Virus record (IMG/VR): IMGVR_UViG_3300045988_148900
Location: 64,001 to 128,000 of that record
Length of the DNA stretch: 64,000 nucleotides
Reading direction: 5' to 3' (one strand)
Source: a virus
The stretch's first letter is position 1, and each line of letters begins with the position of its first letter. The notes below the pieces were generated by a model. It saw only the letters and a program-made list of their open reading frames with translations. It searched no databases and was not told the origin of the DNA. The position numbers were made by a program, and so were the translations under genes. This document shows positions 3,875-61,467 of this stretch, piece after piece.

Positions 3875-3885
3875 AATACAAAAAT

Positions 3886-3907
3886 AATTTAACGGATATA
3901 TAATTGC
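3886..3907 (-). promoter_or_regulatory. phage-specific promoter-like motif GCAATTATATATCCGTTAAATT
   Basis: Exact consensus copy on the minus strand between the terL stop (3919) and the ATG at 3874. Confidence 0.5.
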
Positions 3908-3918
3908 TTAACGGAATC

Positions 3919-6559: not shown

Positions 6560-6601
6560 ATTATAAAAAGATATATCCGGTAAACCCACATTGAATTTAC
6601 T

Positions 6602-6615
6602 GGATATATAATTGA
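6602..6615 (-). promoter_or_regulatory. phage promoter-like motif copy (TCAATTATATATCCAGTAAATT)
   Basis: Minus-strand copy 42 nt upstream of the ATG at 6559 and just after the stop of gene 6630..7430. Confidence 0.4.
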
Positions 6616-6629
6616 TTGTCCCATGCAAG

Positions 6630-7439: not shown

Positions 7440-8000
7440 CTAAATATTATTGCAAAAATCTACCATCATATCCAAAACAGCCTCCGTAGCCTCCAACTCC
7501 GACTGTCGCTTATGAAGACCACGCTGGCAAAACACAAGCAACGACGGCACTAAACGCCGCGGAACATCAATACGTGAGAAACCAGCATCGCCAGAAAGAT
7601 AAGGAAGCAAATCGGAAAGCTCCGACGGTACAATCTCCGGAACCTTACCCTTCGACGGCGAAACAGACTCAAGCCTATCTTCACGGTTCAATCTACGTAA
7701 CAAATTGCCAGCCTCATTGCGAATCATCGTATAAAGATAATTATACGGTGACATCGACTTATCGAAACGATCGTGACGCTCCATAATAGTCATCAAAGCC
7801 TGACTACGCAAATCGTCAAAGTCCTGATAATACTTGCCAAAGTGAGTATTCAAAACAATACTGATAACCTTGTGAATCTCGTCAAGCTCCCGAGACGTAA
7901 CCTCAGAAACAGGATGAAGATAAAACTGAAGAAGTATCTTCTTATCTATCGCAACACGAGCGGTAGAAGAACTGACAAGTATCTCTGACGAATCACACAT
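7440..8000 (-). CDS. sigma-70 region-2-like protein (gp55-like size and architecture)
   Basis: 186 aa. DDLRSQALMTIMERHDRFDKSMSPYNYLYTMIRNEAGNLLRR follows the sigma-70 region 2 pattern. No recognisable region-4 HTH. Confidence 0.55.
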   Translation of the reverse strand: MCDSSEILVSSSTARVAIDKKILLQFYLHPVSEVTSRELDEIHKVISIVLNTHFGKYYQDFDDLRSQALMTIMERHDRFDKSMSPYNYLYTMIRNEAGNLLRRLNREDRLESVSPSKGKVPEIVPSELSDLLPYLSGDAGFSRIDVPRRLVPSLLVFCQRGLHKRQSELEATEAVLDMMVDFCNNI

Positions 8001-8245
8001 GGCTGTAGTAACTTTTTAAGTAATCCAAAACTCGAAAACGTGTGGTCCTATCAGCTAAAGGCCACCAATAAACACACTTCAACTCCTCTTTATGAACATG
8101 AGGCTTACATCGGTAATCTACAGTAGTCCACGTGCGGGGCTTGAATGAACTCGTAAGATGCGGACGTGTAAACTCCTCTATGACATCGGACGTCTTTAAC
8201 AACGACGGCAACCAAAAAGGCCGTGTATCATCAAAAGATAAACAC
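7993..8245 (-). pseudogene. 3' part of a phage ORF split by the tnpB element
   Basis: Reading frame ...CLSFDDTRPFWLPSLLKTSDV...YYSHV* continues the frame of 9509..9630 once the element and one TSD copy are removed. Confidence 0.7.
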
Positions 8246-8271
8246 AGGTGATTATATACAATTCTACACTG
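8246..8271. repeat. terminal inverted repeat, tnpB 3' side (copy A)
   Basis: AGGTGATTATATACAATTCTACACTG. Includes the tnpB stop codon and is identical to the copy B repeat at 50837-50862. Confidence 0.8.
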
Positions 8272-9442
8272 CACATATTGGCGTTTCATCGACTTCGTAA
8301 CCTCCGTCTCCACGCCCATCGAACCGTCCCACCGACGGCAAAAACATCGCTAAACCCTCTCTCAAAATGTTGCTGGCGGCATTTAAGTCTCGGTCGTGGA
8401 CCGTACCACATTGTGGACACGCCCAAGTCCTATTGCCTAACGTAAGACCGTCGTTCTTGTAGCCGCAACACCCACAGGTCTTGCTACTCGGGAAGAAACG
8501 GTCGATCTTTAAAACCGTCTTACCCAACCAACGCGCCTTATATTCCAAGACACGAACGAACTCAAACCAACATACACTCTGGATGGATTTAGCTAATCTA
8601 TGGTTACCCATCATGCCCTTAACATTCAAGTCCTCGATAAAAATGGCTTGGTTCTCACCTAAAATACCGTTGACTGCATGATGGATAAAGTTATGAATTA
8701 AATTACGTTTCTTAGCATATAGTTTATTGATTTTTAATCTTATCTCCGCACGGCGACGACTGCCTTTCTGTCGTCTTGCTTCTATTTTCTGCAAGCGGGA
8801 TATCCGACGATCGATGACGTCCGCGAAACGCGGATTAGGTATCTTGCGACCGTCGGAGGTAACCACAAAGTCCTTCAAACCCAAGTCCAGCCCGACACAC
8901 TTGGACTGGCTTGTGATAGGCGTGGGTTTAAGCTCAGGAACACCCGTCTCGACAAGGCAACTCACCCAAAAGAGTCCGCAGCCGTCGCAACTTACCGTGA
9001 CGTTACGTAACTGACCCGCAAACCGACGATCCTGCTTATAGCGTACTAAACCAATCTTCGATAGTTTGATGTGACTACTTTCCTGATCGACACCACAATG
9101 GGTGGACGGAAAACGACATGATAGCTTGCTCCGATGCTTCGACTTAAACCTTGGAAAACCCTGATGCGTCCGGAAAAACATCCGGTAAGCACTATACATA
9201 TCTCGAACCGACTGAACCAAACAAACCGCAGGAACGTCATACAACCATGCGTACTCGGACTTCAGGCCCGTCATCAAGTTAATACATTCGAACTCCGACA
9301 AGGACGTCTTATCTGTCTTGTAAGCCTTAATCTTAATATCAAGCGTAGCATTATAAACAAACCGACAACAACCGAACGTCTGACGCAACATTGCCTGCTG
9401 CGTCTTGTTCGGATAAAGCCGATATTTATAAGCACGCTTCAT
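8264..9442 (-). CDS. tnpB: TnpB RNA-guided nuclease family protein
   Basis: 392 aa. RuvC triad contexts GLDLGLKD / FIEDLNV / HDRDLNAA, and zinc finger CGCCGY...CPQCG. ATG verified. Confidence 0.9.
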   Translation of the reverse strand: MKRAYKYRLYPNKTQQAMLRQTFGCCRFVYNATLDIKIKAYKTDKTSLSEFECINLMTGLKSEYAWLYDVPAVCLVQSVRDMYSAYRMFFRTHQGFPRFKSKHRSKLSCRFPSTHCGVDQESSHIKLSKIGLVRYKQDRRFAGQLRNVTVSCDGCGLFWVSCLVETGVPELKPTPITSQSKCVGLDLGLKDFVVTSDGRKIPNPRFADVIDRRISRLQKIEARRQKGSRRRAEIRLKINKLYAKKRNLIHNFIHHAVNGILGENQAIFIEDLNVKGMMGNHRLAKSIQSVCWFEFVRVLEYKARWLGKTVLKIDRFFPSSKTCGCCGYKNDGLTLGNRTWACPQCGTVHDRDLNAASNILREGLAMFLPSVGRFDGRGDGGYEVDETPICAV

Positions 9443-9446
9443 ATCA

Positions 9447-9454
9447 CAAAGATA
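9447..9454 (-). promoter_or_regulatory. host-type -7 box TATCTTTG upstream of tnpB
   Basis: Minus-strand TATCTTTG lies 4 nt before the tnpB ATG and matches TAnnTTTG. Confidence 0.35.
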
Positions 9455-9482
9455 GTTATTTATTTACATCTATGCAAGACGG

Positions 9483-9508
9483 TAGTGTAAAATTGTATGT
9501 AATCACCT
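9483..9508. repeat. terminal inverted repeat, tnpB 5' side (copy A)
   Basis: The reverse complement AGGTGATTACATACAATTTTACACTA matches the other end at 23/26. Confidence 0.8.
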
Positions 9509-9630
9509 AAACACAAACCAATACGCTGATGCGTAGTGTAATAATGCTCCGCGCGACATATCCAACGACATATAATCCTCCGCCGCCAACTACCAACACC
9601 ACTCAGAATACTCCAAACTATCCTCTTCAT
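9509..9630 (-). pseudogene. 5' part of the phage ORF split by the tnpB element
   Basis: ATG at 9630 (MKRIVWSILSGVG...HQRIGLCL) runs into the element. The track start at 9675 is TTG. The TSD sits in the same codon phase on both sides. Confidence 0.65.
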
Positions 9631-9701
9631 CTCACCTATGACAACCTTAACTTTTGACTGTATAAATCCCTCCAAAAACCAGTTTCCGAAGCACGACTCC
9701 T

Positions 9702-13175: not shown

Positions 13176-16028
13176 CTACCGCATTGACGCTAAAAAAGAC
13201 TTGCTAAGACACTCCTCGCACAACGTGAACCCTTTGCCGGAACCCACATCAAGCACTGCAGGACGGCCACAGCACTTACAAGAATGAAACTCACGAGAAC
13301 GCAAGGTAGTAACGCAATCAACTGCAGTACCCCTAAAAAGCTTGTTCGGGTGAACACGCTTCGGACGTAAAACCGCCTGAATGTAATACCACGGATTACA
13401 ACGCACCGGAATGACTAAGACACCCTTAGATCCTCCGCGACCGTCTGAGACGACCAATGGGGCGGAAAGCGGCCCAGACCTCAACATATATGGCTTATAC
13501 TTGTCTCCCTCCAAATGTAAGGTAGAACCGTCATACTTAGGAAGCACAAAAGACCAAACGTCCATAGGCAAATCCGACCGGAAAGAAAACAGATTCAAAT
13601 CATCCAACGAAATTGGAATATCAGAAACATCATCTGAAACCCCAAGAACCTCAAAGGACACACTACGGGAATTTAACCCCTGAAAGAACTGACTAACAGC
13701 CGAAACATCATTATAAGACCGAAACTCCAAGTCCACAAGCTGGCTCCCGCCAACATCCCAATGACTATCCGGATAACTCTGACCATAAAGAGAATTAACC
13801 TGCGACACCCGAATAAAAGAATCACAAAGACCCTGATTACACCTTAAAAGACTTGACGCAAAAAGATGCGACGTGGCGCGCGGATTTAGAATTCTGCCAT
13901 AGGACGTCCTCTTTAATCTGAAACGCAGAATATGGGCCGCCTCTGGCTTCTTGTGGGCCTTTATATCGTCGGCGGAGATGGTCGAAGGCAAAGAACGACG
14001 AGACGCAAGACCCGAACGCCCGCAGGCATGGCAATCTGAAACACGAACACCCGGAGAACCTGAAAGAAAACCATCAGATCCTAACGAGACATCCGCAAAC
14101 TGAAAGACCGGATTATTCGAAACCAAAAAAGACGAACAAACACCCCTACACGAATCGGTGCGCAAACACCGAGGCATGCTGAAATCCGGAAAACCTGACG
14201 ACGAAAGACCCTTACGCTCCTGATACCGACGAACGCCATCCAAGCTCGTATGAACCCAATGCAACAACGATATGTAACCATTAAATGAACGCTTATCGAA
14301 GAAGCCTGACTCATCACTACCAATCATAGTACGAAGAGACTTAAAGAAAGGCAAGTCGCGTAAAGACCGCAGCTTATACAAGTTCGAACCCGACGCAACC
14401 TCCCGATGAAGCAACGGAGTCAGACGACGACCAAAGGACACCAAAGCCTGCTCAAGCAGCGTGCTATAACGATAACCATTAACCTCAAAGCGAACACCAA
14501 GCTCGTCCGTGAACCGAGAATACCACTCAGTCGAAATCCACTGACCGTCGTCAAAACTAAGACGAGCAGCGCGCTTCTCAATACACTCCAAAGGCGTCAA
14601 CGGATACTGAACCAAAGGCGTAGCCTTAAACCGTATAGGTAACTTGCCCCCACGACTTGCAGCATACGTAAGCCAACGCTTCGTGAAGCCATAAAGCCAC
14701 TGCCAGTCCGACTCCTCCTCGTAACCCGAAAGAACAAGACCAATCTTAATATCCAAGCAACCCCTATGAATCATGAAGCGCATATAAGACTCCAAAGCCT
14801 CCTCCGAAAGACCCTTATTATAAAGACTGTTCCATATCCGAGGACTAACACCCTCAATAGGAGCCGTGCCGCGACGAAAACCTAAGGCGAAAAGAAGCTC
14901 CATAGCATCTTCATCCTTCCCAAGCTCCTCCATGCGCATATTGCTGAACGTAACCGTAGGAAACACATCCTGAACCTTAGCTACCGTGCCCTTCCAATCC
15001 GTCAAATAGTTGAGATTATAGGCGGCGAGCTTAACCGTATCCGACGCACTCCGAAGCTTAGCAACACGCGCCATAGAAACAATGGTATCCTGAGACTCCT
15101 CCTGTAAGCCACCCGCAAGATGACCCTCAGCACAGAAAGAACAGTTGCCCGCAAAACCACAACCCTCGGCGGCCGAAACCATAGCCAAATTGGTATTACC
15201 ACCATTGCCGCGAATATAACCCGCAGCAGCCCCAAGCAAACCCTCAGGCTTGGACGAACCCAGACAGAAAGTAGCATGATCTGGAGCATCTGCACGAACA
15301 CGACATGTAGACACAATCCTATTACCGCACCACTCAAAAGAATAAGACTGCGGCTGGTAAAAACAAAAAGAACCTTGACTATACCATAAGTAATTCAAAT
15401 ATTGATCCACCGTAGTAGTAGACCGTGGAAAAGAACCCATAGCGTCAAAAAGAAGCTTCTCGTCCCACGTCTGACCCAAATACATGAAGTCTAAGTAACT
15501 ATAACGACCGTCACCAAGAGACCCAAACAAAACATCAGCATAAACAACAGACGCACCTCCCGCATAAATAAGAGGAACATCGGTACGACCATTCCGCTCC
15601 GTGTACGACAACGGAATAGGCTTATCGCACCTGCTGAACGTAGCAAGCATCCACGGAACAACCGGAATCTCATAAAGACACGAAATACTAAAACCAACAA
15701 TGTCAAAATGAGACGGATCGAGATGAGACGAAATACCAATAGCATAAGGAACCTGCTCCTTATCATACCAGCGTATATCATCCCTATGCGGTAGAAACGC
15801 AAAGTCTATAAATACGCCCGGACAGCAAGTCTTAACCCAGTCGAGCAAGACCGTAGGAGTCATCGAATGAGTCTTATCAAAAGACGACGACGGAAAGACT
15901 ATAAGCAACTTCAGATTAGAAGCAGCATAAGCGTCCATAGACATCAGACCTGCATCCGGGTTGTAAAACTCACACCCGTCATGCAAGACTGACTTGTAAC
16001 TCTCTATAAACCGCTCGCTACGTGTCAC
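13176..16028 (-). CDS. large radical-SAM-like protein (TIGR03960-type layout) with C-terminal extension
   Basis: 950 aa. AEGCGFAGNCSFCAEG gives a CX5CX2C cluster. FDIVGFSISCLYE..PLIYAGGASV lies upstream. GTAPIEGVSPRIWNSLYNKGLSEE / IKIGLVLSGYEEESDW / FKATPLVQYPLTP lie downstream. C-terminal CKCCG..CEEC ribbon. GTG start overlaps the upstream TGA. Confidence 0.7.
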   Translation of the reverse strand: MTRSERFIESYKSVLHDGCEFYNPDAGLMSMDAYAASNLKLLIVFPSSSFDKTHSMTPTVLLDWVKTCCPGVFIDFAFLPHRDDIRWYDKEQVPYAIGISSHLDPSHFDIVGFSISCLYEIPVVPWMLATFSRCDKPIPLSYTERNGRTDVPLIYAGGASVVYADVLFGSLGDGRYSYLDFMYLGQTWDEKLLFDAMGSFPRSTTTVDQYLNYLWYSQGSFCFYQPQSYSFEWCGNRIVSTCRVRADAPDHATFCLGSSKPEGLLGAAAGYIRGNGGNTNLAMVSAAEGCGFAGNCSFCAEGHLAGGLQEESQDTIVSMARVAKLRSASDTVKLAAYNLNYLTDWKGTVAKVQDVFPTVTFSNMRMEELGKDEDAMELLFALGFRRGTAPIEGVSPRIWNSLYNKGLSEEALESYMRFMIHRGCLDIKIGLVLSGYEEESDWQWLYGFTKRWLTYAASRGGKLPIRFKATPLVQYPLTPLECIEKRAARLSFDDGQWISTEWYSRFTDELGVRFEVNGYRYSTLLEQALVSFGRRLTPLLHREVASGSNLYKLRSLRDLPFFKSLRTMIGSDESGFFDKRSFNGYISLLHWVHTSLDGVRRYQERKGLSSSGFPDFSMPRCLRTDSCRGVCSSFLVSNNPVFQFADVSLGSDGFLSGSPGVRVSDCHACGRSGLASRRSLPSTISADDIKAHKKPEAAHILRFRLKRTSYGRILNPRATSHLFASSLLRCNQGLCDSFIRVSQVNSLYGQSYPDSHWDVGGSQLVDLEFRSYNDVSAVSQFFQGLNSRSVSFEVLGVSDDVSDIPISLDDLNLFSFRSDLPMDVWSFVLPKYDGSTLHLEGDKYKPYMLRSGPLSAPLVVSDGRGGSKGVLVIPVRCNPWYYIQAVLRPKRVHPNKLFRGTAVDCVTTLRSREFHSCKCCGRPAVLDVGSGKGFTLCEECLSKSFLASMR

Positions 16029-16402
16029 CGCTTATTGAAGTGATAAGATAAACCATAGAGCCCATTACATGGACTATCATCCAAAGTGTAGCCATAATCC
16101 CACATGGTGTTAATCTGAGCCTGCGTAGGATAACCAACACACATAGGATGACGATAAGAGGCATCAACCTGAACAGAAATATAACCTCGCTGAGTCATGT
16201 AATCATCCGGATGAGGAACAAAGGGAAAACGCTGCTGAGCAATGCATCTATGAAGAGACATTATGCTAACCGCTATGAGCTCCGAGGTATCACCATCCTC
16301 CGGCCTGTAGTACAGCACATTGCCATCCGGAGCAACCCAAAACTCGTTACGAATCCGACGCTCCGCCTCTAATAACCACTCGTCCTCAACACCCGTACCC
16401 AT
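16025..16402 (-). CDS. hypothetical protein
   Basis: 125 aa, ATG verified. Its stop overlaps the next gene's start (GTGA). Confidence 0.6.
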   Translation of the reverse strand: MGTGVEDEWLLEAERRIRNEFWVAPDGNVLYYRPEDGDTSELIAVSIMSLHRCIAQQRFPFVPHPDDYMTQRGYISVQVDASYRHPMCVGYPTQAQINTMWDYGYTLDDSPCNGLYGLSYHFNKR

Positions 16403-16420
16403 CTCCTAAGCTTAAAAAAA

Positions 16421-16933
16421 CTACATATCCGACAAGTCGTAATCGCACGGCACGTAACCCCGAGACTCCAAAGCTGCGGCCATACGCGCCGCGCGCTCCA
16501 TAGGCCAGTCATAACCCACAGTCTTCGGCAGAAGAAGCCACGCGGAAGACAACAACGTGTAAACCTCAGACTCGAAATCCACAGAACCGTCCGTCGGCCG
16601 AGAAAGCATGTACATGTAATGACCATCGGCGGACTTCCCAACCGACCGTCCGTAAGCATAAACGTTAACTACAAGACAATTTACATCGCCGAGACCATGC
16701 AACGTAGCATCTGAACTCTGAGGACTCCGACGAACCAAAACCCTGAGCTCGCAACCATCCTGATATTCATCGTACTGACGCTCATCAAGATATCGATAAG
16801 CGTCTCTACGAATGCAATAAGGGTCATCGAAGGCAAGAACGCCGCAGATGCTACTGTCATCATCCGCACGGCTAATAGTCATGTTAGGACATACAGAAAG
16901 CCGCGCCAAACACATTCCAAAATCGTTTTTCAT
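16421..16933 (-). CDS. hypothetical protein
   Basis: 170 aa, ATG verified. Preceded by a variant motif (GAGATTATATACCATTTTAAT, 16947-16958 core). Confidence 0.6.
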   Translation of the reverse strand: MKNDFGMCLARLSVCPNMTISRADDDSSICGVLAFDDPYCIRRDAYRYLDERQYDEYQDGCELRVLVRRSPQSSDATLHGLGDVNCLVVNVYAYGRSVGKSADGHYMYMLSRPTDGSVDFESEVYTLLSSAWLLLPKTVGYDWPMERAARMAAALESRGYVPCDYDLSDM

Positions 16934-16982
16934 AGCACATTAAAATGGTATATAATCTCCAAAACTAAAATAGCTTCAACAA

Positions 16983-17372
16983 TCAACAACACATGGCTCG
17001 ACGTAAGCTCGAACGTAAGATATCGCAGCGAAGATCGTAATTCGGACACCAGCGATCACTGACTGCATCGAGTGTCATCAAGCGGTTACGCGGAACCCCC
17101 TTAGGACTACGTGACAAGTAACGTACTGAGCAATAAACATAGCACACAGAGTAACCAAAGCGTACACGATAGATGCTACCACGAAGGCAATCCCTATCGG
17201 GCTGCTTATCATAACCATGCAAACCGCAAACGCACTTCACGGTAGCAGCAACCCCATGACCCGGAAAGCCTGCGGATATACATGTGGAGATAACAGAGCG
17301 GAGGATAGACTTCTCACTCTTAAACTCACTCCCTAACAAAGCAGGCGATAAAACTCTCGACAAAGATTCCAT
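16983..17372 (-). CDS. hypothetical Cys-rich protein
   Basis: 129 aa, ATG verified. First gene after a strong terminator and a TATCTTTG box. Confidence 0.55.
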   Translation of the reverse strand: MESLSRVLSPALLGSEFKSEKSILRSVISTCISAGFPGHGVAATVKCVCGLHGYDKQPDRDCLRGSIYRVRFGYSVCYVYCSVRYLSRSPKGVPRNRLMTLDAVSDRWCPNYDLRCDILRSSLRRAMCC

Positions 17373-17391
17373 CTCGTAGCTAATTATACCA

Positions 17392-17399
17392 CAAAGATA
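17392..17399 (-). promoter_or_regulatory. host-type -7 box TATCTTTG
   Basis: Minus-strand TATCTTTG lies 19 nt upstream of the ATG at 17372 and directly after the terminator at 17451-17487. Confidence 0.4.
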
Positions 17400-17450
17400 A
17401 AAACGTTAAATTAATAAAACAAATAAAAACCATGGAAAATTGCTTCTATC

Positions 17451-17487
17451 GCAAAAAAAGATGGATGGAGACATACGACTCCATCCA
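17451..17487 (-). terminator. rho-independent terminator
   Basis: Minus strand GGATGGAG-TCGTATGT-CTCCATCC (perfect 8-bp stem) followed by ATCTTTTTTTG. Confidence 0.7.
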
Positions 17488-17541
17488 CCATCGACTACAT
17501 TTGCAAAGCTCCTAAAAGGAAGCTACTACCATAAACGTAAA

Positions 17542-19863
17542 CTAATCCTTCTTAGGCTCGTAAGACTCCGGAGAAACATCAATACTCGGATAAGCTGCCT
17601 TAGCGGCATTAACGATCTTCTTAACAAGACCCGCAACATCAAGGTCGCCGGAATACCAAGTAGGTTTCTCCGTCATCTTATTCGCGTAAGCAATAGCCGC
17701 ACGGGCGCGGGCAAGACTGTTCAGAGGATAGTGACACTTGCCGTCATTCACATCCGGAGAATCCTTCGGGAAAACACAATCCGTCCGAGGAGCATCGGCA
17801 GAATCATTAACTGCAACCACATTAAACCCGTCGAAGTAAGAATTCAGAATGCGAACTGCGGCAGCAATAGTATCTGAAGCGTCGCCTCCAAAAGCCTCAA
17901 AATCGCCAAGCAAGTCCTTAAGTTCCGAAAGACCCGGCGTGGGAACTTTCCACGAAGCTACAGTAGCATCACCATCAAAAACCGAGATATGAGCCACATT
18001 AAGTTTACCATTCAAGGCAGACCGCAAACCCAAATTGGTGCTCTCAAAGTCAAATTTGACACCGCCAGACTCTACGGGAATAAACACCTCGATAGAACCA
18101 TCCCCAGCCTGATCGAAGGTATAACCTTCTCCGTGGAGAAGCAAAAGCAAATCTGTCATATCAATACCCGGATCATCTGACGAGTCTACAACCCACTTCA
18201 TCGAAGAAGCATAGTAAGGATCATCTTTATGCTCCTCGACAAAAGACTTAGCCTGTGCCAGATTGTGGTCGTAATCCTCCTTGATCAACTCGGAAATTGA
18301 ATGATTCTTACCATTGGGCGAAAAATACTCAATCCCATACAGATCACGACCCTTCTCATCCTGCTTGCCAAGACTACCCAAATAACCAATGGTCTGACCA
18401 AGAGACATCAAATCCACACCATCCCAGTTAATCGTATCGGATGTCTTCGCCCAATCGGCATCCTGATAAGGATTCACAACACCCGGACGAACAAACTCCG
18501 GTGTAAGACCCGACTCCGAAACATAAACACTATCCGAAACCTTCGCCGAATCCGACACGCCAATATTAGCCTTCTTTACACTCTGAACAACATCGATAAA
18601 GTCATAGGCATCATCTGCTGCCTGCACAAACCAAAGAAGTGCCAAAAGAGACTCAACCTTCTTGTAAAAGTCAAAAGGTACGACAGTTTCATAAGGATCA
18701 GAATCTGCATCTGACGGATTCTCGTAAGAGTAGAATACAATCTTATCCGGATACAACGAAATATGACCCTCATTGCCGTCGCCAAGCTTGTAGTAACCGG
18801 AAACAAGGTCCTTGGTATCATCCTCGACTGTAAAAGCACTATCCTCATGAAGACGCTTAGAAACTGTATCGAACCACAACGAACGATCGATATCTCCTGA
18901 TACTGAAATCTTAGTATCTCCGTCGGAAACAGCAGAGACACCAACCCGTTGGCCCTGATACCACCGAGTAGGGGTCGAGTCTTCAACCTTCCCAAGCGAC
19001 GCCAAATCACCATACACATGTGACGCCTTAGCGTCAATGCCGTAATCGAAACCACGACGCTTGCCATCCGACGTCCGAGCCTCAACCGTAATCTTAGGCT
19101 CCTTGTCCTTACTGTAAGCCTTAACACTCACAATAGCACCTCCGAGGTCCTTCAAATCCAAAGTAATACCCTTAATCTCTGCGGGCTTACCGGAAACCTT
19201 GAAGTTCTCCTTCACAAGCTTCAAAGCACCCGAAATCTTAGAAAGATCAGAAGCCTTCGAATCCGAAACCTTAGCGCGCTGAACAGGCTTGCCTACACGC
19301 TGACCTCCGTCCACCTTCGAAATATAATCCCGACCCCGAGTGACTCCAGAACCCGAAGGACGAGCATGATTGACAGGACGACCCAAACGCTCTCCAGACA
19401 TATAACGAACAGGAGAACCACCATTCCGATTCTTGGCGTCCACATACACCGCATCAGACACCTTCAAGTCCTCCAGCTTATCTACATCCTCCCCGGCATG
19501 CTTCTGTAAGACGTCAATAAACCGACGGAACTTATTGAGCTTCTCGCCAGCCTCCTTGCCAGAAATACCCAAGAAACGAGCCAAGTCTCCCATCTCTGAC
19601 TCTGACAAATTACGCTTACTCGAACCCTCAACTACCACGGACTCCCCGTCCAAGTACACATCCACATAGACAAAAGGAGCATCCGGCTTCTCGCCCGTGT
19701 AAATACGATACCCATCACGACGAGGCATAACCGTAACAAAAGACTCAAGACCCGCCTTACGCAAAGCACCCTCAAGGTACTCCTTAAGACGCTCGTTGGA
19801 GTCACAAACACGAGAATAGCTGTCACATACAACCTCCTCGAAAAAACCACCCTGTTTACCCAT
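17542..19863 (-). CDS. large hypothetical protein (possibly virion-associated)
   Basis: 773 aa from the ATG at 19863. The track start at 19890 is TTG. No motif recognised by eye. Confidence 0.65.
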   Translation of the reverse strand: MGKQGGFFEEVVCDSYSRVCDSNERLKEYLEGALRKAGLESFVTVMPRRDGYRIYTGEKPDAPFVYVDVYLDGESVVVEGSSKRNLSESEMGDLARFLGISGKEAGEKLNKFRRFIDVLQKHAGEDVDKLEDLKVSDAVYVDAKNRNGGSPVRYMSGERLGRPVNHARPSGSGVTRGRDYISKVDGGQRVGKPVQRAKVSDSKASDLSKISGALKLVKENFKVSGKPAEIKGITLDLKDLGGAIVSVKAYSKDKEPKITVEARTSDGKRRGFDYGIDAKASHVYGDLASLGKVEDSTPTRWYQGQRVGVSAVSDGDTKISVSGDIDRSLWFDTVSKRLHEDSAFTVEDDTKDLVSGYYKLGDGNEGHISLYPDKIVFYSYENPSDADSDPYETVVPFDFYKKVESLLALLWFVQAADDAYDFIDVVQSVKKANIGVSDSAKVSDSVYVSESGLTPEFVRPGVVNPYQDADWAKTSDTINWDGVDLMSLGQTIGYLGSLGKQDEKGRDLYGIEYFSPNGKNHSISELIKEDYDHNLAQAKSFVEEHKDDPYYASSMKWVVDSSDDPGIDMTDLLLLLHGEGYTFDQAGDGSIEVFIPVESGGVKFDFESTNLGLRSALNGKLNVAHISVFDGDATVASWKVPTPGLSELKDLLGDFEAFGGDASDTIAAAVRILNSYFDGFNVVAVNDSADAPRTDCVFPKDSPDVNDGKCHYPLNSLARARAAIAYANKMTEKPTWYSGDLDVAGLVKKIVNAAKAAYPSIDVSPESYEPKKD

Positions 19864-22415: not shown

Positions 22416-22427
22416 GAAGCTACGTTA

Positions 22428-22449
22428 AATTTAACGGATATATAATTGC
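22428..22449 (-). promoter_or_regulatory. phage promoter-like motif GCAATTATATATCCGTTAAATT
   Basis: Exact consensus copy on the minus strand, directly downstream of the terminator at 22464-22496. Confidence 0.5.
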
Positions 22450-22463
22450 TTATGCCGCAGACG

Positions 22464-26796: not shown

Positions 26797-26816
26797 CCCA
26801 CGGCTAAAGCCGCGGG
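26797..26816 (-). repeat. IS right-end subterminal hairpin
   Basis: CCCGCGGC TTTA GCCGTGGG on the tnpB sense strand. It straddles the tnpB stop codon. Confidence 0.7.
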
Positions 26817-27934
26817 ATTCTTGACTCAGACATGGCCGCCACCGAGGTGGGCTTACTACCACTAATCAACGCGTCCATGCCCGAACGCCGAATGTTTAAC
26901 GCTGCGTTGAGATCACGATCATGATGCGTTCCGCACTGCGGACAAAGCCATGAACGGTCAACCAACCGAAGCTCTTTATTAACGTACCCGCATCCACTGC
27001 ACAGCTTGCTACTCGCAAACCACTTATCGACATGCACAACGTTCGTGTTGTACTTAGTAGCTACGAACTCCAAGCGCGACACGAATGATGCGTGGCTGAG
27101 ATCCGAAACCTTACGGCCCCATAAGCGACGCATACCATCAAGGATCAACGTCTCCAAGCAGATCGTAGAATAACACTGACAAAGATCATGCGCTAAGCGC
27201 CACTGATAATCGTCACGATGGTTGCTGATCCCACGATAGAGCCTGCTGAGTTCAAGACGCCGACGGCGGTGGTTATTTGAGCCTTTGACGGATTGGCTCA
27301 ACCGCCGATGCGCCTTACGGATATCACGAAGCGTCTGCTTAAAGAATTGAGGGTTCTCGTAACTGCGCCCGTCGGATAACGTCAAATACGTCTTCAAGCC
27401 AAAGTCAATGCCTACAACCGCACCATCATGTGTCGTGTTGCTGGATTCTACCTTAGCGTCGGTTACGACGTACAACCAAAAGTCGCCGCACGGAGCACGC
27501 TTAACGCGAACCGTCTTTATCGCACCATCAAAATTACGGGATTTATGAAATTTATAAGTCTTCTTAAGTCTGTTGATTGTGAAGCAATTGCCGTCTATCT
27601 TATACCCATAATGCAGCTTATAGGCAAAGGATTGAAAATCCGCGGCACATCGGAACTTAGGCGGCCGCTTGGCAAGCTTCTTGAAGAAACGTTGGTACGC
27701 AGCAGCAAGTCGCTGCAACACCTCAATGCTATTGTGTGAGTACAATAGATGCCGCTTGATGCGCTTTGTAAAATGCTTCTGCATGTCAACCGTTGAAACG
27801 TACTTGCCATACATACGGTAGTATCTACGTTGAAGCGCAAGTGCGTGGTTCCATACAAACGCACACTCCCGAAGCATCCGGTCCAACCATACGGTCCGAT
27901 GTGTCTTGTAGAGTTTGTATTTGTATGTCAACAT
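26804..27934 (-). CDS. tnpB: TnpB (IS605 OrfB family)
   Basis: 376 aa. GIDFGLKT / ...LETLILDG... / HHDRDLNAALNI, and zinc finger CSGCGY..CPQCG. A TATATTTG box lies at 27954-27961. Confidence 0.9.
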   Translation of the reverse strand: MLTYKYKLYKTHRTVWLDRMLRECAFVWNHALALQRRYYRMYGKYVSTVDMQKHFTKRIKRHLLYSHNSIEVLQRLAAAYQRFFKKLAKRPPKFRCAADFQSFAYKLHYGYKIDGNCFTINRLKKTYKFHKSRNFDGAIKTVRVKRAPCGDFWLYVVTDAKVESSNTTHDGAVVGIDFGLKTYLTLSDGRSYENPQFFKQTLRDIRKAHRRLSQSVKGSNNHRRRRLELSRLYRGISNHRDDYQWRLAHDLCQCYSTICLETLILDGMRRLWGRKVSDLSHASFVSRLEFVATKYNTNVVHVDKWFASSKLCSGCGYVNKELRLVDRSWLCPQCGTHHDRDLNAALNIRRSGMDALISGSKPTSVAAMSESRIPRL

Positions 27935-27973
27935 TACTGTACTCTTTATGCCACAAATATAAGAATAAAATAC

Positions 27974-27981
27974 TATCTTTG
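27974..27981 (+). promoter_or_regulatory. host-type -7 box TATCTTTG upstream of tnpA
   Basis: Plus-strand TATCTTTG lies 12 nt before the ATG at 27994. Confidence 0.4.
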
Positions 27982-27993
27982 CAAATAAAAACT

Positions 27994-28392
27994 ATGCGTA
28001 CACGTTGGCAGACGAATAAAGGCTCCGTCTATAATGTAGCCTATCATATCATCTGGTGCCCCAAGTACCGGAGGAAAGTTCTTACAGGAGATATTGCCGA
28101 GCGCTTCAAGGCTTTGCTCTATGAACAAGCCGCCAAGTTCGGATGGGTTATCGAGTCGCTGGAGGTCATGCCTGATCATGTACATCTATCCATTAAGGCT
28201 AATCCTATTGATCCGGTTGCGCGGATTGTGGCACAGCTTAAGGGCTACACGTCACACATGCTGCGGCTTGAATTTCCGTCGCTTCAGACGCGCATGCCGA
28301 CCCTCTGGACGCGATCCTATTACGTCGAGACGATAGGACACATTTCAGAGGATACGATACGTCGATATATTGAGGATCAGAAGAAAAAGTAG
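27994..28392 (+). CDS. tnpA: IS200-type Y1 (HUH) transposase TnpA
   Basis: 132 aa from the ATG at 27994: MRTRWQTNKGSVYNVAYHIIWCPKYRRKVL..MPDHVHLSI..YTSHMLR..LWTRSYYVETIG (HUH motif HVH and catalytic Tyr region). The upstream part of the track ORF is rejected. Confidence 0.9.
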   Translation: MRTRWQTNKGSVYNVAYHIIWCPKYRRKVLTGDIAERFKALLYEQAAKFGWVIESLEVMPDHVHLSIKANPIDPVARIVAQLKGYTSHMLRLEFPSLQTRMPTLWTRSYYVETIGHISEDTIRRYIEDQKKK

Positions 28393-32051: not shown

Positions 32052-32132
32052 AGACGAAAAATTTGTAAACAAATCAACGTAAAACAAAAAATACACCGCA
32101 AAGCACGAAGCATGCCTCCTACAAAAAAAAAC

Positions 32133-32315
32133 GGATATAGAATTGCTCCAAGCGGAAAAACTAAACTCTAAAATTCTGGATATAGAATTGCTCCAAGCAT
32201 GCATAAACACCCTAAAACAAGAAGCTATACACAAAATTCAGGATATAGAATTGCTGAAAGCAGAAACTAAAACAACACACAACAGATAAATCTCGGATAT
32301 AGAATTGCTGAAAGC
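32133..32315 (-). repeat. four direct copies of GCTT(TC/GG)AGCAATTCTATATCC (variant of the phage motif)
   Basis: Copies at 32133-32153, 32178-32198, 32241-32261 and 32295-32315. Start-to-start spacing is 45, 63 and 54 bp. Confidence 0.85.
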
Positions 32316-32419
32316 AGGCACTAAACAACACATAAATACCTGAAGCTGCACTTCATATAAACGCCGAAAGGCGCAGAAAACCAAAAGAATAGCTTGTTGA
32401 TGGTGCCCAAAGGCTACGC

Positions 32420-45503: not shown

Positions 45504-45528
45504 GAATAGACCTCCGGAATGATTTGTG

Positions 45529-45542
45529 GGATATATAATTGC
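45529..45542 (-). promoter_or_regulatory. phage promoter-like motif copy (GCAATTATATATCCCACAAAT)
   Basis: Exact 14-nt core on the minus strand, 25 nt before the ATG at 45503. Confidence 0.45.
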
Positions 45543-45621
45543 ATAACCCAAAAGACACCCTAAAAGAAAAGACCCCAGAGTGAAAACCACTCCAGAGCCT
45601 CATGACTAAAGAACGCACAAA

Positions 45622-46966: not shown

Positions 46967-46982
46967 AACCAATCAATTTAAC

Positions 46983-46996
46983 GGATATATAATTAC
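46983..46996 (-). promoter_or_regulatory. phage promoter-like motif copy (GTAATTATATATCCGTTAAATT)
   Basis: Minus strand, immediately after the terminator at 46995-47036. Confidence 0.45.
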
Positions 46997-47036
46997 AAAA
47001 ATGGTGCCGGAGAAACCTCGTAAGAAACCCGGCACC
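46995..47036 (-). terminator. hairpin terminator
   Basis: Minus strand GGTGCCGG-N18-CCGGCACC (perfect 8-bp stem) followed by ATTTTTG. Confidence 0.5.
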
Positions 47037-50798: not shown

Positions 50799-50823
50799 AA
50801 AAAAAAGTGACCCGAATGTCACT
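50799..50823 (-). terminator. rho-independent terminator
   Basis: Minus strand AGTGAC-ATTCGG-GTCACT followed by T8. Confidence 0.6.
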
Positions 50824-50836
50824 TTTAATTACATGT

Positions 50837-52099
50837 AGGTGATTATATACAATTCTACACTGCATATATTGGCGTTTCACCGACTTCGTAACCTCCGTCT
50901 CCACGCCCCTCAAACCGCCCCACCGACGGCAGTATCTCCACTAAACCCGCACGCAAAATGTTGATGGCGGCATTTAAGTCACGGTCGTGGACCGTACCAC
51001 ATTGTGGACACGTCCAAGATCGGTCCTTAAGTGTAAGACCATCGTTCTTATAACCGCAACAACCACAAGTCTTGCTGCTCGGGAAGAAACGGTCGATCTT
51101 TAAAACCGTCTTACCAAGCCACCGCGCCTTGTAATCCAAGACACGAACAAACTCGGACCAACAAATGTTTTGAATGGATTTAGCCAAACTGTGATTACCC
51201 ATCATACCCTTAACATTCAAGTCCTCGATAAACACGGCTTGGTTCTCACCCAGTATCGAGTTGACTGTATGATGGATAAAGTTATTAATCAAATTACGTT
51301 TCTTAGCATATAACTTATTGATTTTAAGTCTTATCTCCGCACGGCGTCTACTGCCTTTCTGGCGGCGGGACTCGATCTTCTGCAGACGCGATATGCGGCG
51401 ATCTATAACATCCGCGAAACGCGGATTAGGTATCTTACGTCCATCGGATGTAACTATGAAGTCCTTCAACCCCAAGTCAAGACCAACGCACTTAGACTGG
51501 CTTGTGATAGGCGCGGGTTTAAGCTCAAGAACACCCGTCTCCACAAGACAACTAACCCAATAACGTCCGCAACCATCGCAGCTCACCGTGATGTTACGTA
51601 ACTGCCCTTTGAACCGACGATCTTGCTTATATTTAATCAAACCGATTTTCGGCAATTTAATGTGACGCGTTTCTTGGTCTACAGAGCAGAAGGGAACCGA
51701 AAATCTACACGATAATTTACTACGATGTTTGGACTTAAACTTTGGGTAACCCTGCTTGATCTTAAAGAATTGCTGATAAGCACTATCCATGTCATAGACT
51801 GCCTGCGGCAGACATACATGCGGAACAACACGCAACCACTCATGCTCTTCCTTAAGACCTGTAATTAACTTGATGCAGTCGAACTTAGACAACGTCGTCT
51901 TATCCGCCTCATATGCCTTTATCTTAGCAGCAAGTGTGGCGTTATAAATGAACCGACAACAATCGAACGACTGACGCAACATCGCCTCCTGCGTCTTGTT
52001 CGGATAAAGTCGGTATTTATAGGCACGCTTCATGATGCTAATATAGTTGTTTATTTACGTCTATGCAAGCTGTTAGTGCAAAATTGTATGTAATCACCT
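50837..52099 (-). mobile_element. tnpB-only element with TIRs and 6-bp TSD (copy B, 1263 bp)
   Basis: Same ends as copy A (50837-50862 and 52074-52099, 22/26 as inverted repeats). Flanked by direct ACATGT at 50831-50836 and 52100-52105. Confidence 0.8.
50855..52033 (-). CDS. tnpB: TnpB RNA-guided nuclease family protein
   Basis: 392 aa. About 85% identical to the copy A protein by eye. RuvC D/E/D contexts and the zinc finger are intact. Confidence 0.9.
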   Translation of the reverse strand: MKRAYKYRLYPNKTQEAMLRQSFDCCRFIYNATLAAKIKAYEADKTTLSKFDCIKLITGLKEEHEWLRVVPHVCLPQAVYDMDSAYQQFFKIKQGYPKFKSKHRSKLSCRFSVPFCSVDQETRHIKLPKIGLIKYKQDRRFKGQLRNITVSCDGCGRYWVSCLVETGVLELKPAPITSQSKCVGLDLGLKDFIVTSDGRKIPNPRFADVIDRRISRLQKIESRRQKGSRRRAEIRLKINKLYAKKRNLINNFIHHTVNSILGENQAVFIEDLNVKGMMGNHSLAKSIQNICWSEFVRVLDYKARWLGKTVLKIDRFFPSSKTCGCCGYKNDGLTLKDRSWTCPQCGTVHDRDLNAAINILRAGLVEILPSVGRFEGRGDGGYEVGETPIYAV

Positions 52100-52343
52100 A
52101 CATGTATTTCTGCTCCCAAGCTTCAAGAGCTGATTCTAACTCAGGAGGAATTAATTCTGAACGATCGATATCCCTAATCGTAGTCAGAAAAGACTCAATG
52201 CTACTAACCAAAGGACGAGTATCTGTCAACAACTGAGCCTCAGCAAGATCAACAGCCTTCAAGCAATCGAATCTGTCAAACTTGCCAGAAGTATGCAGAA
52301 GAATAAACTCCTCAGCATCTGAACTATAAGGACGACGTTTCAT
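52098..52343 (-). CDS. hypothetical protein
   Basis: 81 aa. The present TAG stop is built from the last 2 nt of the element plus the first TSD base. The pre-insertion sequence would give TAA at the same codon. Confidence 0.6.
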   Translation of the reverse strand: MKRRPYSSDAEEFILLHTSGKFDRFDCLKAVDLAEAQLLTDTRPLVSSIESFLTTIRDIDRSELIPPELESALEAWEQKYM

Positions 52344-60979: not shown

Positions 60980-60999
60980 GCGCAACACAATTATTTAAC

Positions 61000-61013
61000 G
61001 GATATATAATTGC
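61000..61013 (-). promoter_or_regulatory. phage promoter-like motif copy (GCAATTATATATCCGTTAAATA)
   Basis: Exact 14-nt core, 20 nt before the tail fibre ATG and just after the terminator at 61046-61074. Confidence 0.5.
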
Positions 61014-61045
61014 TACCCCACCCTACAGACATTAAAACATAACTA

Positions 61046-61088: not shown

Positions 61089-61343
61089 CTAACTCTCCTG
61101 TCGCATCCGTCGAAGAACTTCCTGCCACTCGCAATCCATGTCGCGCCAATAGGTATAACCCTCCGGAGTCATACAAAACTGAAAGGCCTCGAGAATGTAA
61201 AAAGGAGGCCGACTGACCGGATCACAAACATAGGAATGAAAAGACTGACGACCCAAATTAAACGTGAACTTCTCGAAAGCTCCTCGATCCTTCAGAAAGG
61301 ACTCAAATGCAATAACAAATCTGTTGTTAACAAGCATGACCAT
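61089..61343 (-). CDS. hypothetical protein
   Basis: 84 aa, ATG verified. Confidence 0.55.
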   Translation of the reverse strand: MVMLVNNRFVIAFESFLKDRGAFEKFTFNLGRQSFHSYVCDPVSRPPFYILEAFQFCMTPEGYTYWRDMDCEWQEVLRRMRQES

Positions 61344-61467
61344 TAATAGCTAACCCAAGTGAATGTCAACAAAAAGCATCGGCGTGAAGACAGTATTAAA
61401 CAAATAAGCAATATCCTAACAGTGAGCCGACTCGACAACTCGGATGATACGTAAAACTCTAAAATGC

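Follow-up and report, generated by a model that had tools for sequence, protein, structure and literature searches.

In this study, we analysed a 64,000-nucleotide stretch of DNA from a gut phage (positions 64,001 to 128,000 of the IMG/VR virus record IMGVR_UViG_3300045988_148900; hereafter the window) and focused on an element, here called copy B, that is inserted directly downstream of a phage gene encoding a protein of 81 amino acids. Copy B is 1263 bp long, is flanked by direct repeats of ACATGT and has the same length and the same ends as a sister element in the window (copy A), all as reported in a first-pass annotation of this DNA. The two copies align without gaps, and their homology is limited exactly to AGGTGATT...AATCACCT. 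Each contains a single gene, which encodes a TnpB protein of 392 amino acids on the minus strand. Copy B has the orientation of every gene in the window, and the distance between its tnpB stop codon and the right end is 18 nt. The terminal inverted repeat, previously given as 18 nt, was found to comprise 24 nt with two mismatches (AGGTGATTAYATACAATTYTRCAC) and can be extended to about 29 nt.

Copy B is located between the stop codon and the terminator of the 81-residue phage gene, and its target was ACATGT preceded by T and followed by A. The gene now ends in K-Y-M-TAG, in which the duplicated target supplies the T (52100) and the first two bases of the element form the AG (52099-52098). In-silico removal of copy B together with one ACATGT gave a TAA stop, as had been proposed for the original gene, and the empty site of two related phage contigs (L002 and L003; L numbers are our own handles) reads TAC ATG TAA and continues into the same terminator. 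The first-pass annotation was right to place the insertion ahead of the terminator, which it gave as 50799-50823; the stem is called at a slightly shifted position, 50826-50803 on the minus strand. The terminator now lies 10 nt downstream of copy B and would stop read-through transcripts 30-40 nt beyond the right end of the element.

A survey of related phages, which the same annotation had suggested, revealed empty sites at both loci: relatives with 90-97% identical flanks carry a single copy of the 6-mer there. At locus B, the site is uninterrupted in L001-L003, in which the neighbouring 277-residue protein is 95-96% identical, and the L002-type empty site reads GGAGAT followed by ACATGTAATTAAAAGTGACC. 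At locus A, empty sites with one GTGTTT are present in the related phages L004-L006. Since it is the closest relatives that have empty sites at both loci, the two insertions should be recent.

The TnpB of copy B contains the Pfam domains HTH_OrfB_IS605, OrfB_IS605 and Cas12f1-like_TNB, and matches the NCBIfam model guided_TnpB over its full length (325 bits). Structures of ISDra2 TnpB match it at E = 6e-65, and its D186, E270 and D352 together with C323, C326, C342 and C345 align to D191, E278 and D361 and to the zinc finger of the ISDra2-numbered TnpB structure. The catalytic triad and the zinc-finger residues are identical between copies A and B, in agreement with the first-pass annotation, in which the difference between the two proteins had been estimated at about 15% of residues; we counted 69 of 392 (17.6%, i.e., 82% identity), with 80.5% identity at the DNA level. 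By the Nei-Gojobori method, the non-synonymous (dN) and synonymous (dS) divergences were 0.115 and 0.93, respectively. The dN/dS of 0.12 indicates strong purifying selection on the TnpB of both copies, as had been supposed.

The ends of copy B are shared with transposons that carry a transposase of the IS1595 family. In L202, a syntenic phage and close relative, a 2492-bp element (15963-18454) has the ends GGGTAATTATATATAATTTTACAC and AGGTAACTATATATTATTTTGCAC, is flanked by TAATTT and encodes a KilA-N protein and a 305-residue protein with an IS1595 transposase domain (Pfam DDE_Tnp_IS1595, PF12762, E = 1e-43; NCBIfam IS1595 family transposase, NF033547, 198 bits against a cutoff of 75). We scanned viral contigs for the 18-nt end sequence, which gave 65 loci, and additionally fetched 80 viral loci with relatives of the L202 transposase. 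At 34 of these 80 loci, the transposase gene is enclosed by a pair of the repeats, and 16 of those pairs are flanked by perfect 6-bp duplications. In the transposase elements of L255 and L259, the ends differ from the repeat of copy B at one of 24 positions. In addition to the IS1595 transposase domain, the autonomous partners match the N-terminal zinc ribbon weakly; transposase-bearing transposons with these repeats are 2.4-4.9 kb long and occur in phages as well as in chromosomes of Bacteroidales. Homologues sharing 74-90% identity with one or other of the two queried phage transposases are named IS1595 family transposases of Parabacteroides faecis and Alistipes ihumii and are located on contigs of up to 1.5 Mb, and all four independent sites examined in Bacteroidales chromosomal contexts have these ends and a perfect 6-bp duplication.

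The same repeats and the same 6-bp duplication are also found in gene-less miniature elements of 170-335 bp (185-335 bp in the scanned viral contigs), of which examples with duplications were identified in a Chryseobacterium chromosome and in metagenome-assembled genomes (MAGs) of Alistipes and Gastranaerophilales as well. The consensus ends are AGGTGATTATATACaATTTTACAC for TnpB elements, AGGTgATTATATACaATTTTACAC for miniature elements and aGGtAATTATATACtAcTTTACAC for transposase elements. Taking all element classes together, we identified 34 independent sites with perfect 6-bp duplications (21 around transposase genes), which share the target preference WWT, six bases of any kind, AWW, to which both copy A and copy B conform. 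The window contains four occurrences of the 18-nt end sequence at one mismatch or fewer, and 0.04 occurrences would be expected even for a looser search with three mismatches. Together with the 34 duplicated sites, this excludes chance as the origin of the repeat. When a genome collection was scanned for the same 18-mer, most of the 50 matches were lone, with neither a partner repeat nor an adjoining element, and are probably chance or promoter-like occurrences; only three miniature elements and a phage-like contig within a MAG appeared to be genuine. No element with both tnpB and a transposase gene was observed among the 80 transposase loci and L202, and the tnpB elements are single-gene elements.

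As copy B shares both its ends and the length of its target duplication with transposase-bearing elements, it can be regarded as a non-autonomous IS1595-type member. We therefore consider it highly probable that copy B is a TnpB/omegaRNA module of OMEGA type that is enclosed in the terminal inverted repeats of an IS1595-family lineage and is moved in trans by the transposase of that lineage.

Several kinds of TnpB are associated with these ends. Repeat-bounded elements that carry tnpB alone are 1259-1351 bp long in viral contigs, and their proteins form four groups that are 80-100%, ~60%, ~45% and ~21% identical to the TnpB of copy B. In a neighbour-joining tree, which is a crude method, repeat-bearing TnpBs were placed at three separate positions, suggestive of repeated capture. 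On the other hand, 79 of 80 TnpB relatives sampled from viral contigs (39-46% identical to copy B) lack the repeat; the exception (L122) is a 61%-identical copy of clade II. Where related pairs allowed the ends of repeat-free relatives to be mapped, the element extends about 35-160 nt beyond the stop codon and has no inverted repeats.

The 3' part of tnpB also appears to encode a guide RNA. The synonymous differences between copies A and B amount to a proportion of 0.4-0.8 across most of the gene, with dips to about 0.3 at codons 1-28 and 225-280, and of 0.16-0.27 in the last 56 codons, where no decrease is seen in the non-synonymous proportion. For the two closest TnpB groups, we aligned 18 distinct tails of 215 nt each, and this alignment yielded a fold of six helices with 30 pairs, in which 99.3% of 540 cells are paired and covariation is seen in 39 cells that changed on both sides. 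This degree of pairing was reached by none of 500 shuffles, and sliding the partners lowered it to 25-59%. No Rfam family matched at either gathering or relaxed thresholds. In the terminal hairpin predicted for copy B, TATATGCAG (50868-50860) pairs with TTGTATATA (50852-50844), and the latter lies inside the right repeat. An equivalent terminal hairpin is predicted in all four TnpB groups, and not at the opposite end, and it is missing from 11 of 12 folded ends of transposase elements, the right end of L211 being the exception.

The hairpin and its tail share alignment columns with the terminal hairpin plus TAGTTCAC of the repeat-free relatives L143 and L160, and these elements end there too. 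Such homology implies that the right repeat represents the end of the scaffold and that the guide is provided by the flank. The guide predicted in this way for copy B matches the empty sites of L002 and L003 at 19 of 20 positions. The first-pass annotation had also proposed to predict the target-adjacent motif (TAM) from the flanking sequences, which gave no conserved motif beyond the target preference of the transposase. The bases 5' of the duplication at tnpB elements (GGTTT, GAAAT, GGGTT, GAAAC, GTTAT, TTTAT and GGTAT) were considered as a TAM and rejected, as an equal bias is present at the sites of transposase and miniature elements and thus reflects the preference of the transposase. One might speculate that the TAM is short and W-rich and ends in T, which would fit most insertion sites. 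Features of both copies are listed in Table 1.

Table 1. Features of copy B, its insertion site and its sister element (window coordinates)
Feature	Position	Strand	Remarks
Copy B, complete non-autonomous element, 1263 bp	50837..52099	-	Order on the minus strand: left repeat, tnpB with overlapping omegaRNA, right repeat
Target-site duplication at left end, ACATGT	52100..52105		Base 52100 is the T of the present TAG stop
Target-site duplication at right end, ACATGT	50831..50836		Doubles as nt 1-6 of the predicted guide
Left terminal inverted repeat	52076..52099	-	AGGTGATTACATACAATTTTGCAC on the tnpB strand; consensus is that of IS1595-type transposon ends
Right terminal inverted repeat	50837..50860	-	GTGTAGAATTGTATATAATCACCT on the tnpB strand; holds the tnpB stop codon; 3' arm and tail of the last predicted omegaRNA hairpin
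tnpB of copy B, 392 aa	50855..52033	-	RuvC triad D186, E270, D352 and C4 zinc finger intact
Predicted omegaRNA scaffold, about 175 nt	50837..51010	-	Overlaps the 3' end of tnpB; 5' limit approximate
Predicted omegaRNA helices	51010-50993; 50930-50914; 50907-50871 (inner helix within); terminal hairpin 50868-50860 / 50852-50844		Terminal hairpin followed by the tail ATCACCT
Predicted guide, ACATGTAATTAAAAGTGACA	50817..50836	-	Duplicated target plus right flank; placed by the position of the scaffold end
Phage gene, 81 aa	52098..52343	-	Stop rebuilt by the insertion, TAA to TAG
Intrinsic terminator of the upstream phage gene	50795..50826	-	Terminator scan: 9-bp stem at 50826-50803(-), then T run; conserved in L001-L003
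Copy A, sister element, 1263 bp, tnpB 8264-9442	8246..9508	-	AAACAC at 8240-8245 and 9509-9514; breaks a conserved small open reading frame

Several observations weigh against copy B being an IS1595-type element with its own guide RNA. First, a search of 81 of the 134.6 kb of this phage genome (the window plus 17 kb past its two edges, retrieved from ENA ERZ28616900 scaffold_155) did not reveal an IS1595 transposase, and none of the close transposase homologues listed was traced to this genome. Second, the duplications observed here are 6 bp long, whereas those of described IS1595-family members are 7-9 bp, usually 8 (PMC12561309). Third, the duplication is kept at about seven of 22 distinct tnpB-element loci, and processes besides simple transposition also shape these loci. 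Finally, the omegaRNA structure was predicted from the very alignment that was used to score it, and no TAM-like motif specific to tnpB elements is present in the insertion flanks.

One alternative is that copy B is an immobile relic, whose nuclease has been co-opted by the phage, for example to exclude competitors, and whose repeats are leftovers. Strong purifying selection, the shared orientation with all phage genes and the lack of a transposase in the 81 kb searched would all agree with this. We nevertheless regard it as improbable: both sites are empty in phages with 90-97% identical flanks, copies are present elsewhere in related genomes (in L202 between the gene of a 234-residue protein and the portal gene, in L067 near window position 61274, and also in L021 and L006), and both repeats and the duplication of copy B are intact.

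It seems quite unlikely, too, that TnpB mobilises itself by using the right repeat as a fixed guide against both inverted repeats, with staggered cuts producing the duplication. The repeat of about 18-24 nt is similar in length to a guide, the same repeat accompanies very different TnpBs, and the searched part of the genome is without a transposase. However, the repeat aligns to the terminal scaffold hairpin and tail of repeat-free relatives that end at the same column, so that the guide lies beyond the repeat; insertion sites do not resemble the repeat; and the same repeat and 6-bp duplication surround transposase genes and tnpB-free miniature elements. A role of the repeat as a guide with which TnpB cuts the ends of its own element was rejected on the basis of the tail alignment and the transposase elements with the same ends.

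Copy B might also be an ordinary tnpB-only member of IS200/IS605 (IS1341 type) that is moved as single-stranded DNA by a Y1 TnpA such as that encoded at 26.8-28.4 kb of the window. Its protein is a typical TnpB and a Y1 tnpA is indeed present (27995-28392), but we find this reading very hard to sustain. IS200/IS605 elements have neither terminal inverted repeats nor a duplication and insert adjacent to a fixed motif of 4-5 nt (PMC13565253), whereas copy B has repeats of 24 nt, the 6-bp duplications vary in sequence, and the empty sites contain the 6-mer once; in place of asymmetric subterminal hairpins at the ends of copy B, a stable hairpin is found at the right end only. Moreover, the IS605-type TnpB of the window is 29% identical to that of copy B and its element has no end sequence in common with copies A and B, and TnpB relatives with asymmetric ends (40-50% identity) are without this repeat.

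Duplication of a genome segment within the phage can practically be dismissed despite the equal length of copies A and B and the absence of indels, because the 100 nt outside each duplication are 20-34% identical between the two loci (the first-pass annotation had likewise argued against a recent duplication), a different 6-bp sequence is duplicated at each copy, the dS of 0.93 is far beyond the divergence between related phage genomes, and the protein of copy A is nearer to that of a differently located copy in a different phage (L021, 92% identity) than to that of copy B (82%). Copies A and B are independent and fairly recent insertions by lineages that diverged elsewhere, and neither a duplication nor old residents; of the phrase "old or independent" that had been applied to them, only "independent" can be retained.

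If copy B is an IS1595-type element as proposed above, its ends would come from IS1595-family transposons of Bacteroidota chromosomes and their phages, which duplicate 6 bp of their targets. Copy B would have been inserted in trans by a DDE transposase, derived either from an insertion sequence of the host or from an autonomous element carried by this phage or by one that co-infects. Owing to its sense orientation in a phage operon, tnpB could be transcribed by read-through. The omegaRNA is predicted to overlap the last ~170 nt of tnpB and to use the right inverted repeat as the 3' arm of its final hairpin. The scaffold would stop at the element boundary, and the adjoining flank (ACATGTAATTAAAAGTGACA) would serve as the guide, so that each transposition would create a new guide. 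It is most likely that the nuclease cuts element-free copies of the same locus in co-infecting relatives, after which recombinational repair might copy the element into the cut site (homing) or the competitor might simply be damaged. Strong purifying selection, co-orientation with the phage genes, presence or absence among near-identical phages and guides that match the empty allele are all suggestive of such a role. After cut-and-paste transposition, the donor site is left broken, and the donor-restoring role proposed for TnpB in IS605 is therefore not obviously applicable (PMC13565253).

A more far-reaching scenario, which we offer tentatively and would not yet favour, is that the ends of a single IS1595-type transposon lineage took in unrelated TnpB/omegaRNA modules on at least three occasions, with the transposase-binding repeat becoming the last hairpin of the guide RNA each time. 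In phages, this might give a two-stage selfish element, in which the borrowed DDE transposase seeds sites and rewrites the guide, and the nuclease drives the insertions through the population by cutting uninterrupted alleles during co-infection.

TnpB with DDE-type ends is already known in kind, and it is apparently the pairing with IS1595 that is new. The main text of a 2023 TnpB survey (Altae-Tran et al., PNAS, PMC10691335) describes DDE-associated TnpBs, all of them bounded by inverted terminal repeats. Identical ends are reported there for some solo TnpBs, for which the authors inferred mobilisation in trans; a later review lists IS630, ISL2 and IS1031 as DDE partners of TnpB (PMC13565253). 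As in copy B, TnpB is located inside symmetrical inverted terminal repeats in the transposons of that survey, the 3' end of tnpB is less than 250 bp from the end, and solo TnpBs have the ends of transposase-bearing elements. Unlike in those transposons, the partner here is IS1595, which is named neither in the main text of the survey nor in the review. Also, those transposons enclose both genes in one repeat pair, whereas tnpB and transposase were found only in separate elements at the loci examined here, and one set of ends is used by at least three unrelated TnpB lineages in a phage setting. A literature search for TnpB together with IS1595 found no relevant paper. What appears to be new is thus the IS1595 partner, the 6-bp duplication, the strict confinement of nuclease and transposase to separate elements, the sharing of ends by unrelated TnpBs, the dual role of the right repeat and the phage setting.

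With the IS1595 family (ISXO2-like DDE transposases, related to IS1 and eukaryotic Merlin), the autonomous partners share the transposase domain, short inverted repeats starting with (A)GG, A/T-rich targets and frequent passenger genes. The present lineage deviates from the described members in the 6-bp duplication found at 34 sites, and copy B in having no transposase gene. TnpBs of the IS1341 group and of ISDra2 belong to the same protein family and have the same catalytic residues, an omegaRNA over the 3' end of the gene and a flank-derived guide. In IS200/IS605, however, the ends are asymmetric hairpins, transposition is single-stranded and scar-free, and the fixed target motif equals the TAM, while copy B has inverted repeats and a 6-bp duplication instead. 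Fanzor1 in eukaryotic DDE transposons (Bao and Jurka 2013, PMC3627910) is likewise a TnpB-type cargo nuclease within inverted repeats and duplications in often non-autonomous elements; copy B differs from it in the prokaryotic and phage setting, in the compact canonical TnpB of 392 amino acids and in the transposon superfamily. Free-standing homing endonuclease genes of phages are similarly situated between conserved genes, are present or absent in close relatives and are expected to cut the allele that lacks them. In contrast to them, recognition by copy B would be RNA-guided and reset with each transposition, and homing by copy B is what we infer.

TnpB is usually paired with transposases that excise without a scar, which is the basis of the proposed donor-site restoration, and a cut-and-paste DDE partner has been argued to make this role pointless. 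Here, a DDE-type family seems to have recruited TnpB repeatedly, in non-autonomous copies only and mostly in phages, which points to another benefit, probably homing between co-infecting phages. One short sequence would serve two uses, as a transposase site and as a guide-RNA hairpin. In addition, these elements offer a resource in the form of a compact nuclease of 392 amino acids, a defined scaffold end and natural pairs of guide and target in occupied and empty alleles. For annotation, tnpB-only genes of phages should not automatically be assigned to IS200/IS605.

With regard to other tnpB genes of this phage, the window contains three intact ones (in copies A and B and in an IS605-type element), as had been reported, and a fourth was found in the same genome beyond the left edge, so that at least four are present. 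The additional gene lies in a third repeat-bounded copy of 1263 bp (L207 12519-13781, about 2 kb beyond window position 1), which is flanked by TTCAGA and AAATAT, without a duplication. The IS605-type element is a classic unit (window 26804-28392) that consists of tnpB (26804-27934, minus strand) and a divergent Y1 tnpA-like open reading frame (ORF; about 27995-28392, plus strand). A truncated copy in L003 (142-306) and L032 (1036-1200) contains the left repeat and the first 33 codons of tnpB and then continues into unrelated sequence, with a TnpB of merely 30% identity located 1.5 kb further on.

At locus A (window 7993-8245 and 9509-9675), a conserved ORF of about 123-138 codons reappears once copy A is deleted together with one AAACAC, and L004, L005 and L006 carry this ORF unbroken across the site. 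Its present N-terminal piece extends 16 codons into the element. An ORF of 108 codons on the minus strand (window 7993-8319) has its ATG within the right end of copy A, overlaps the last tnpB codons in a different frame and continues into the C-terminal part of the interrupted gene; it was also predicted by the gene caller in the ENA contig (L207 3224-3550). This ORF could be a route to expression of the downstream gene fragment.

Among the repeat-bounded elements at large, tnpB elements often lack a duplication (L013/L062/L066; L017/L025; L007/L046; L021; L067), and in three groups of them the left flank is shared and the right, guide-side flank is different. In L067, the element plus 40 nt takes the place of 92 nt of the window (61275-61366). 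Transposase elements seemingly retain the duplication at a higher rate (16 of the 34 loci that have a repeat pair and four of four chromosomal sites). A family of miniature elements of ~330 bp (L027, L056, L046 13994-14328, L019 and L260) has about 89 nt in common with the right end of the 407-residue TnpB group at 78-81% identity, and may include part of an omegaRNA scaffold. Seven unrelated phage contigs (L010, L011, L033, L035, L037, L061 and L064) contain cassettes of 1767-1875 bp between a perfect 18-mer and a degenerate inverted partner; judged from the translations alone, these encode apparent membrane proteins and an apparent endolysin, and they have an outer inverted sequence and no duplication.

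The phage itself is poorly charted. BLAST searches of both loci against deposited phage genomes returned no relatives and merely short tnpB matches, and the ten largest window proteins had no match in PHROGs. Its recognisable features are limited to weak matches to T4-like portal, Gp23 and Gp53 proteins, together with a protein with sigma-70 region 2, a clamp loader and a RecA-like protein. Relatives have an intein in the clamp-loader gene, with NUMOD-type endonuclease genes close by; these observations were made on the whole window, L202 and L207.

An intergenic motif, GGATATATAATTGC, precedes genes at 3883-3912, 6591-6620, 22425-22454, 45518-45547, 46972-47001 and 60989-61018, with four more occurrences at 32126-32325, and is probably a phage promoter. 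Its core on the gene strand, AATTnTATAT, resembles the core of the inverted repeat of the element. Finally, a lone repeat-like sequence, TGGAGATTATATACCATTTTAATG, is present on the minus strand at window 16938-16961, immediately upstream of the start codon of gene 16421-16933. This sequence differs from the 24-mer at six positions and could be either a relic end or a promoter.

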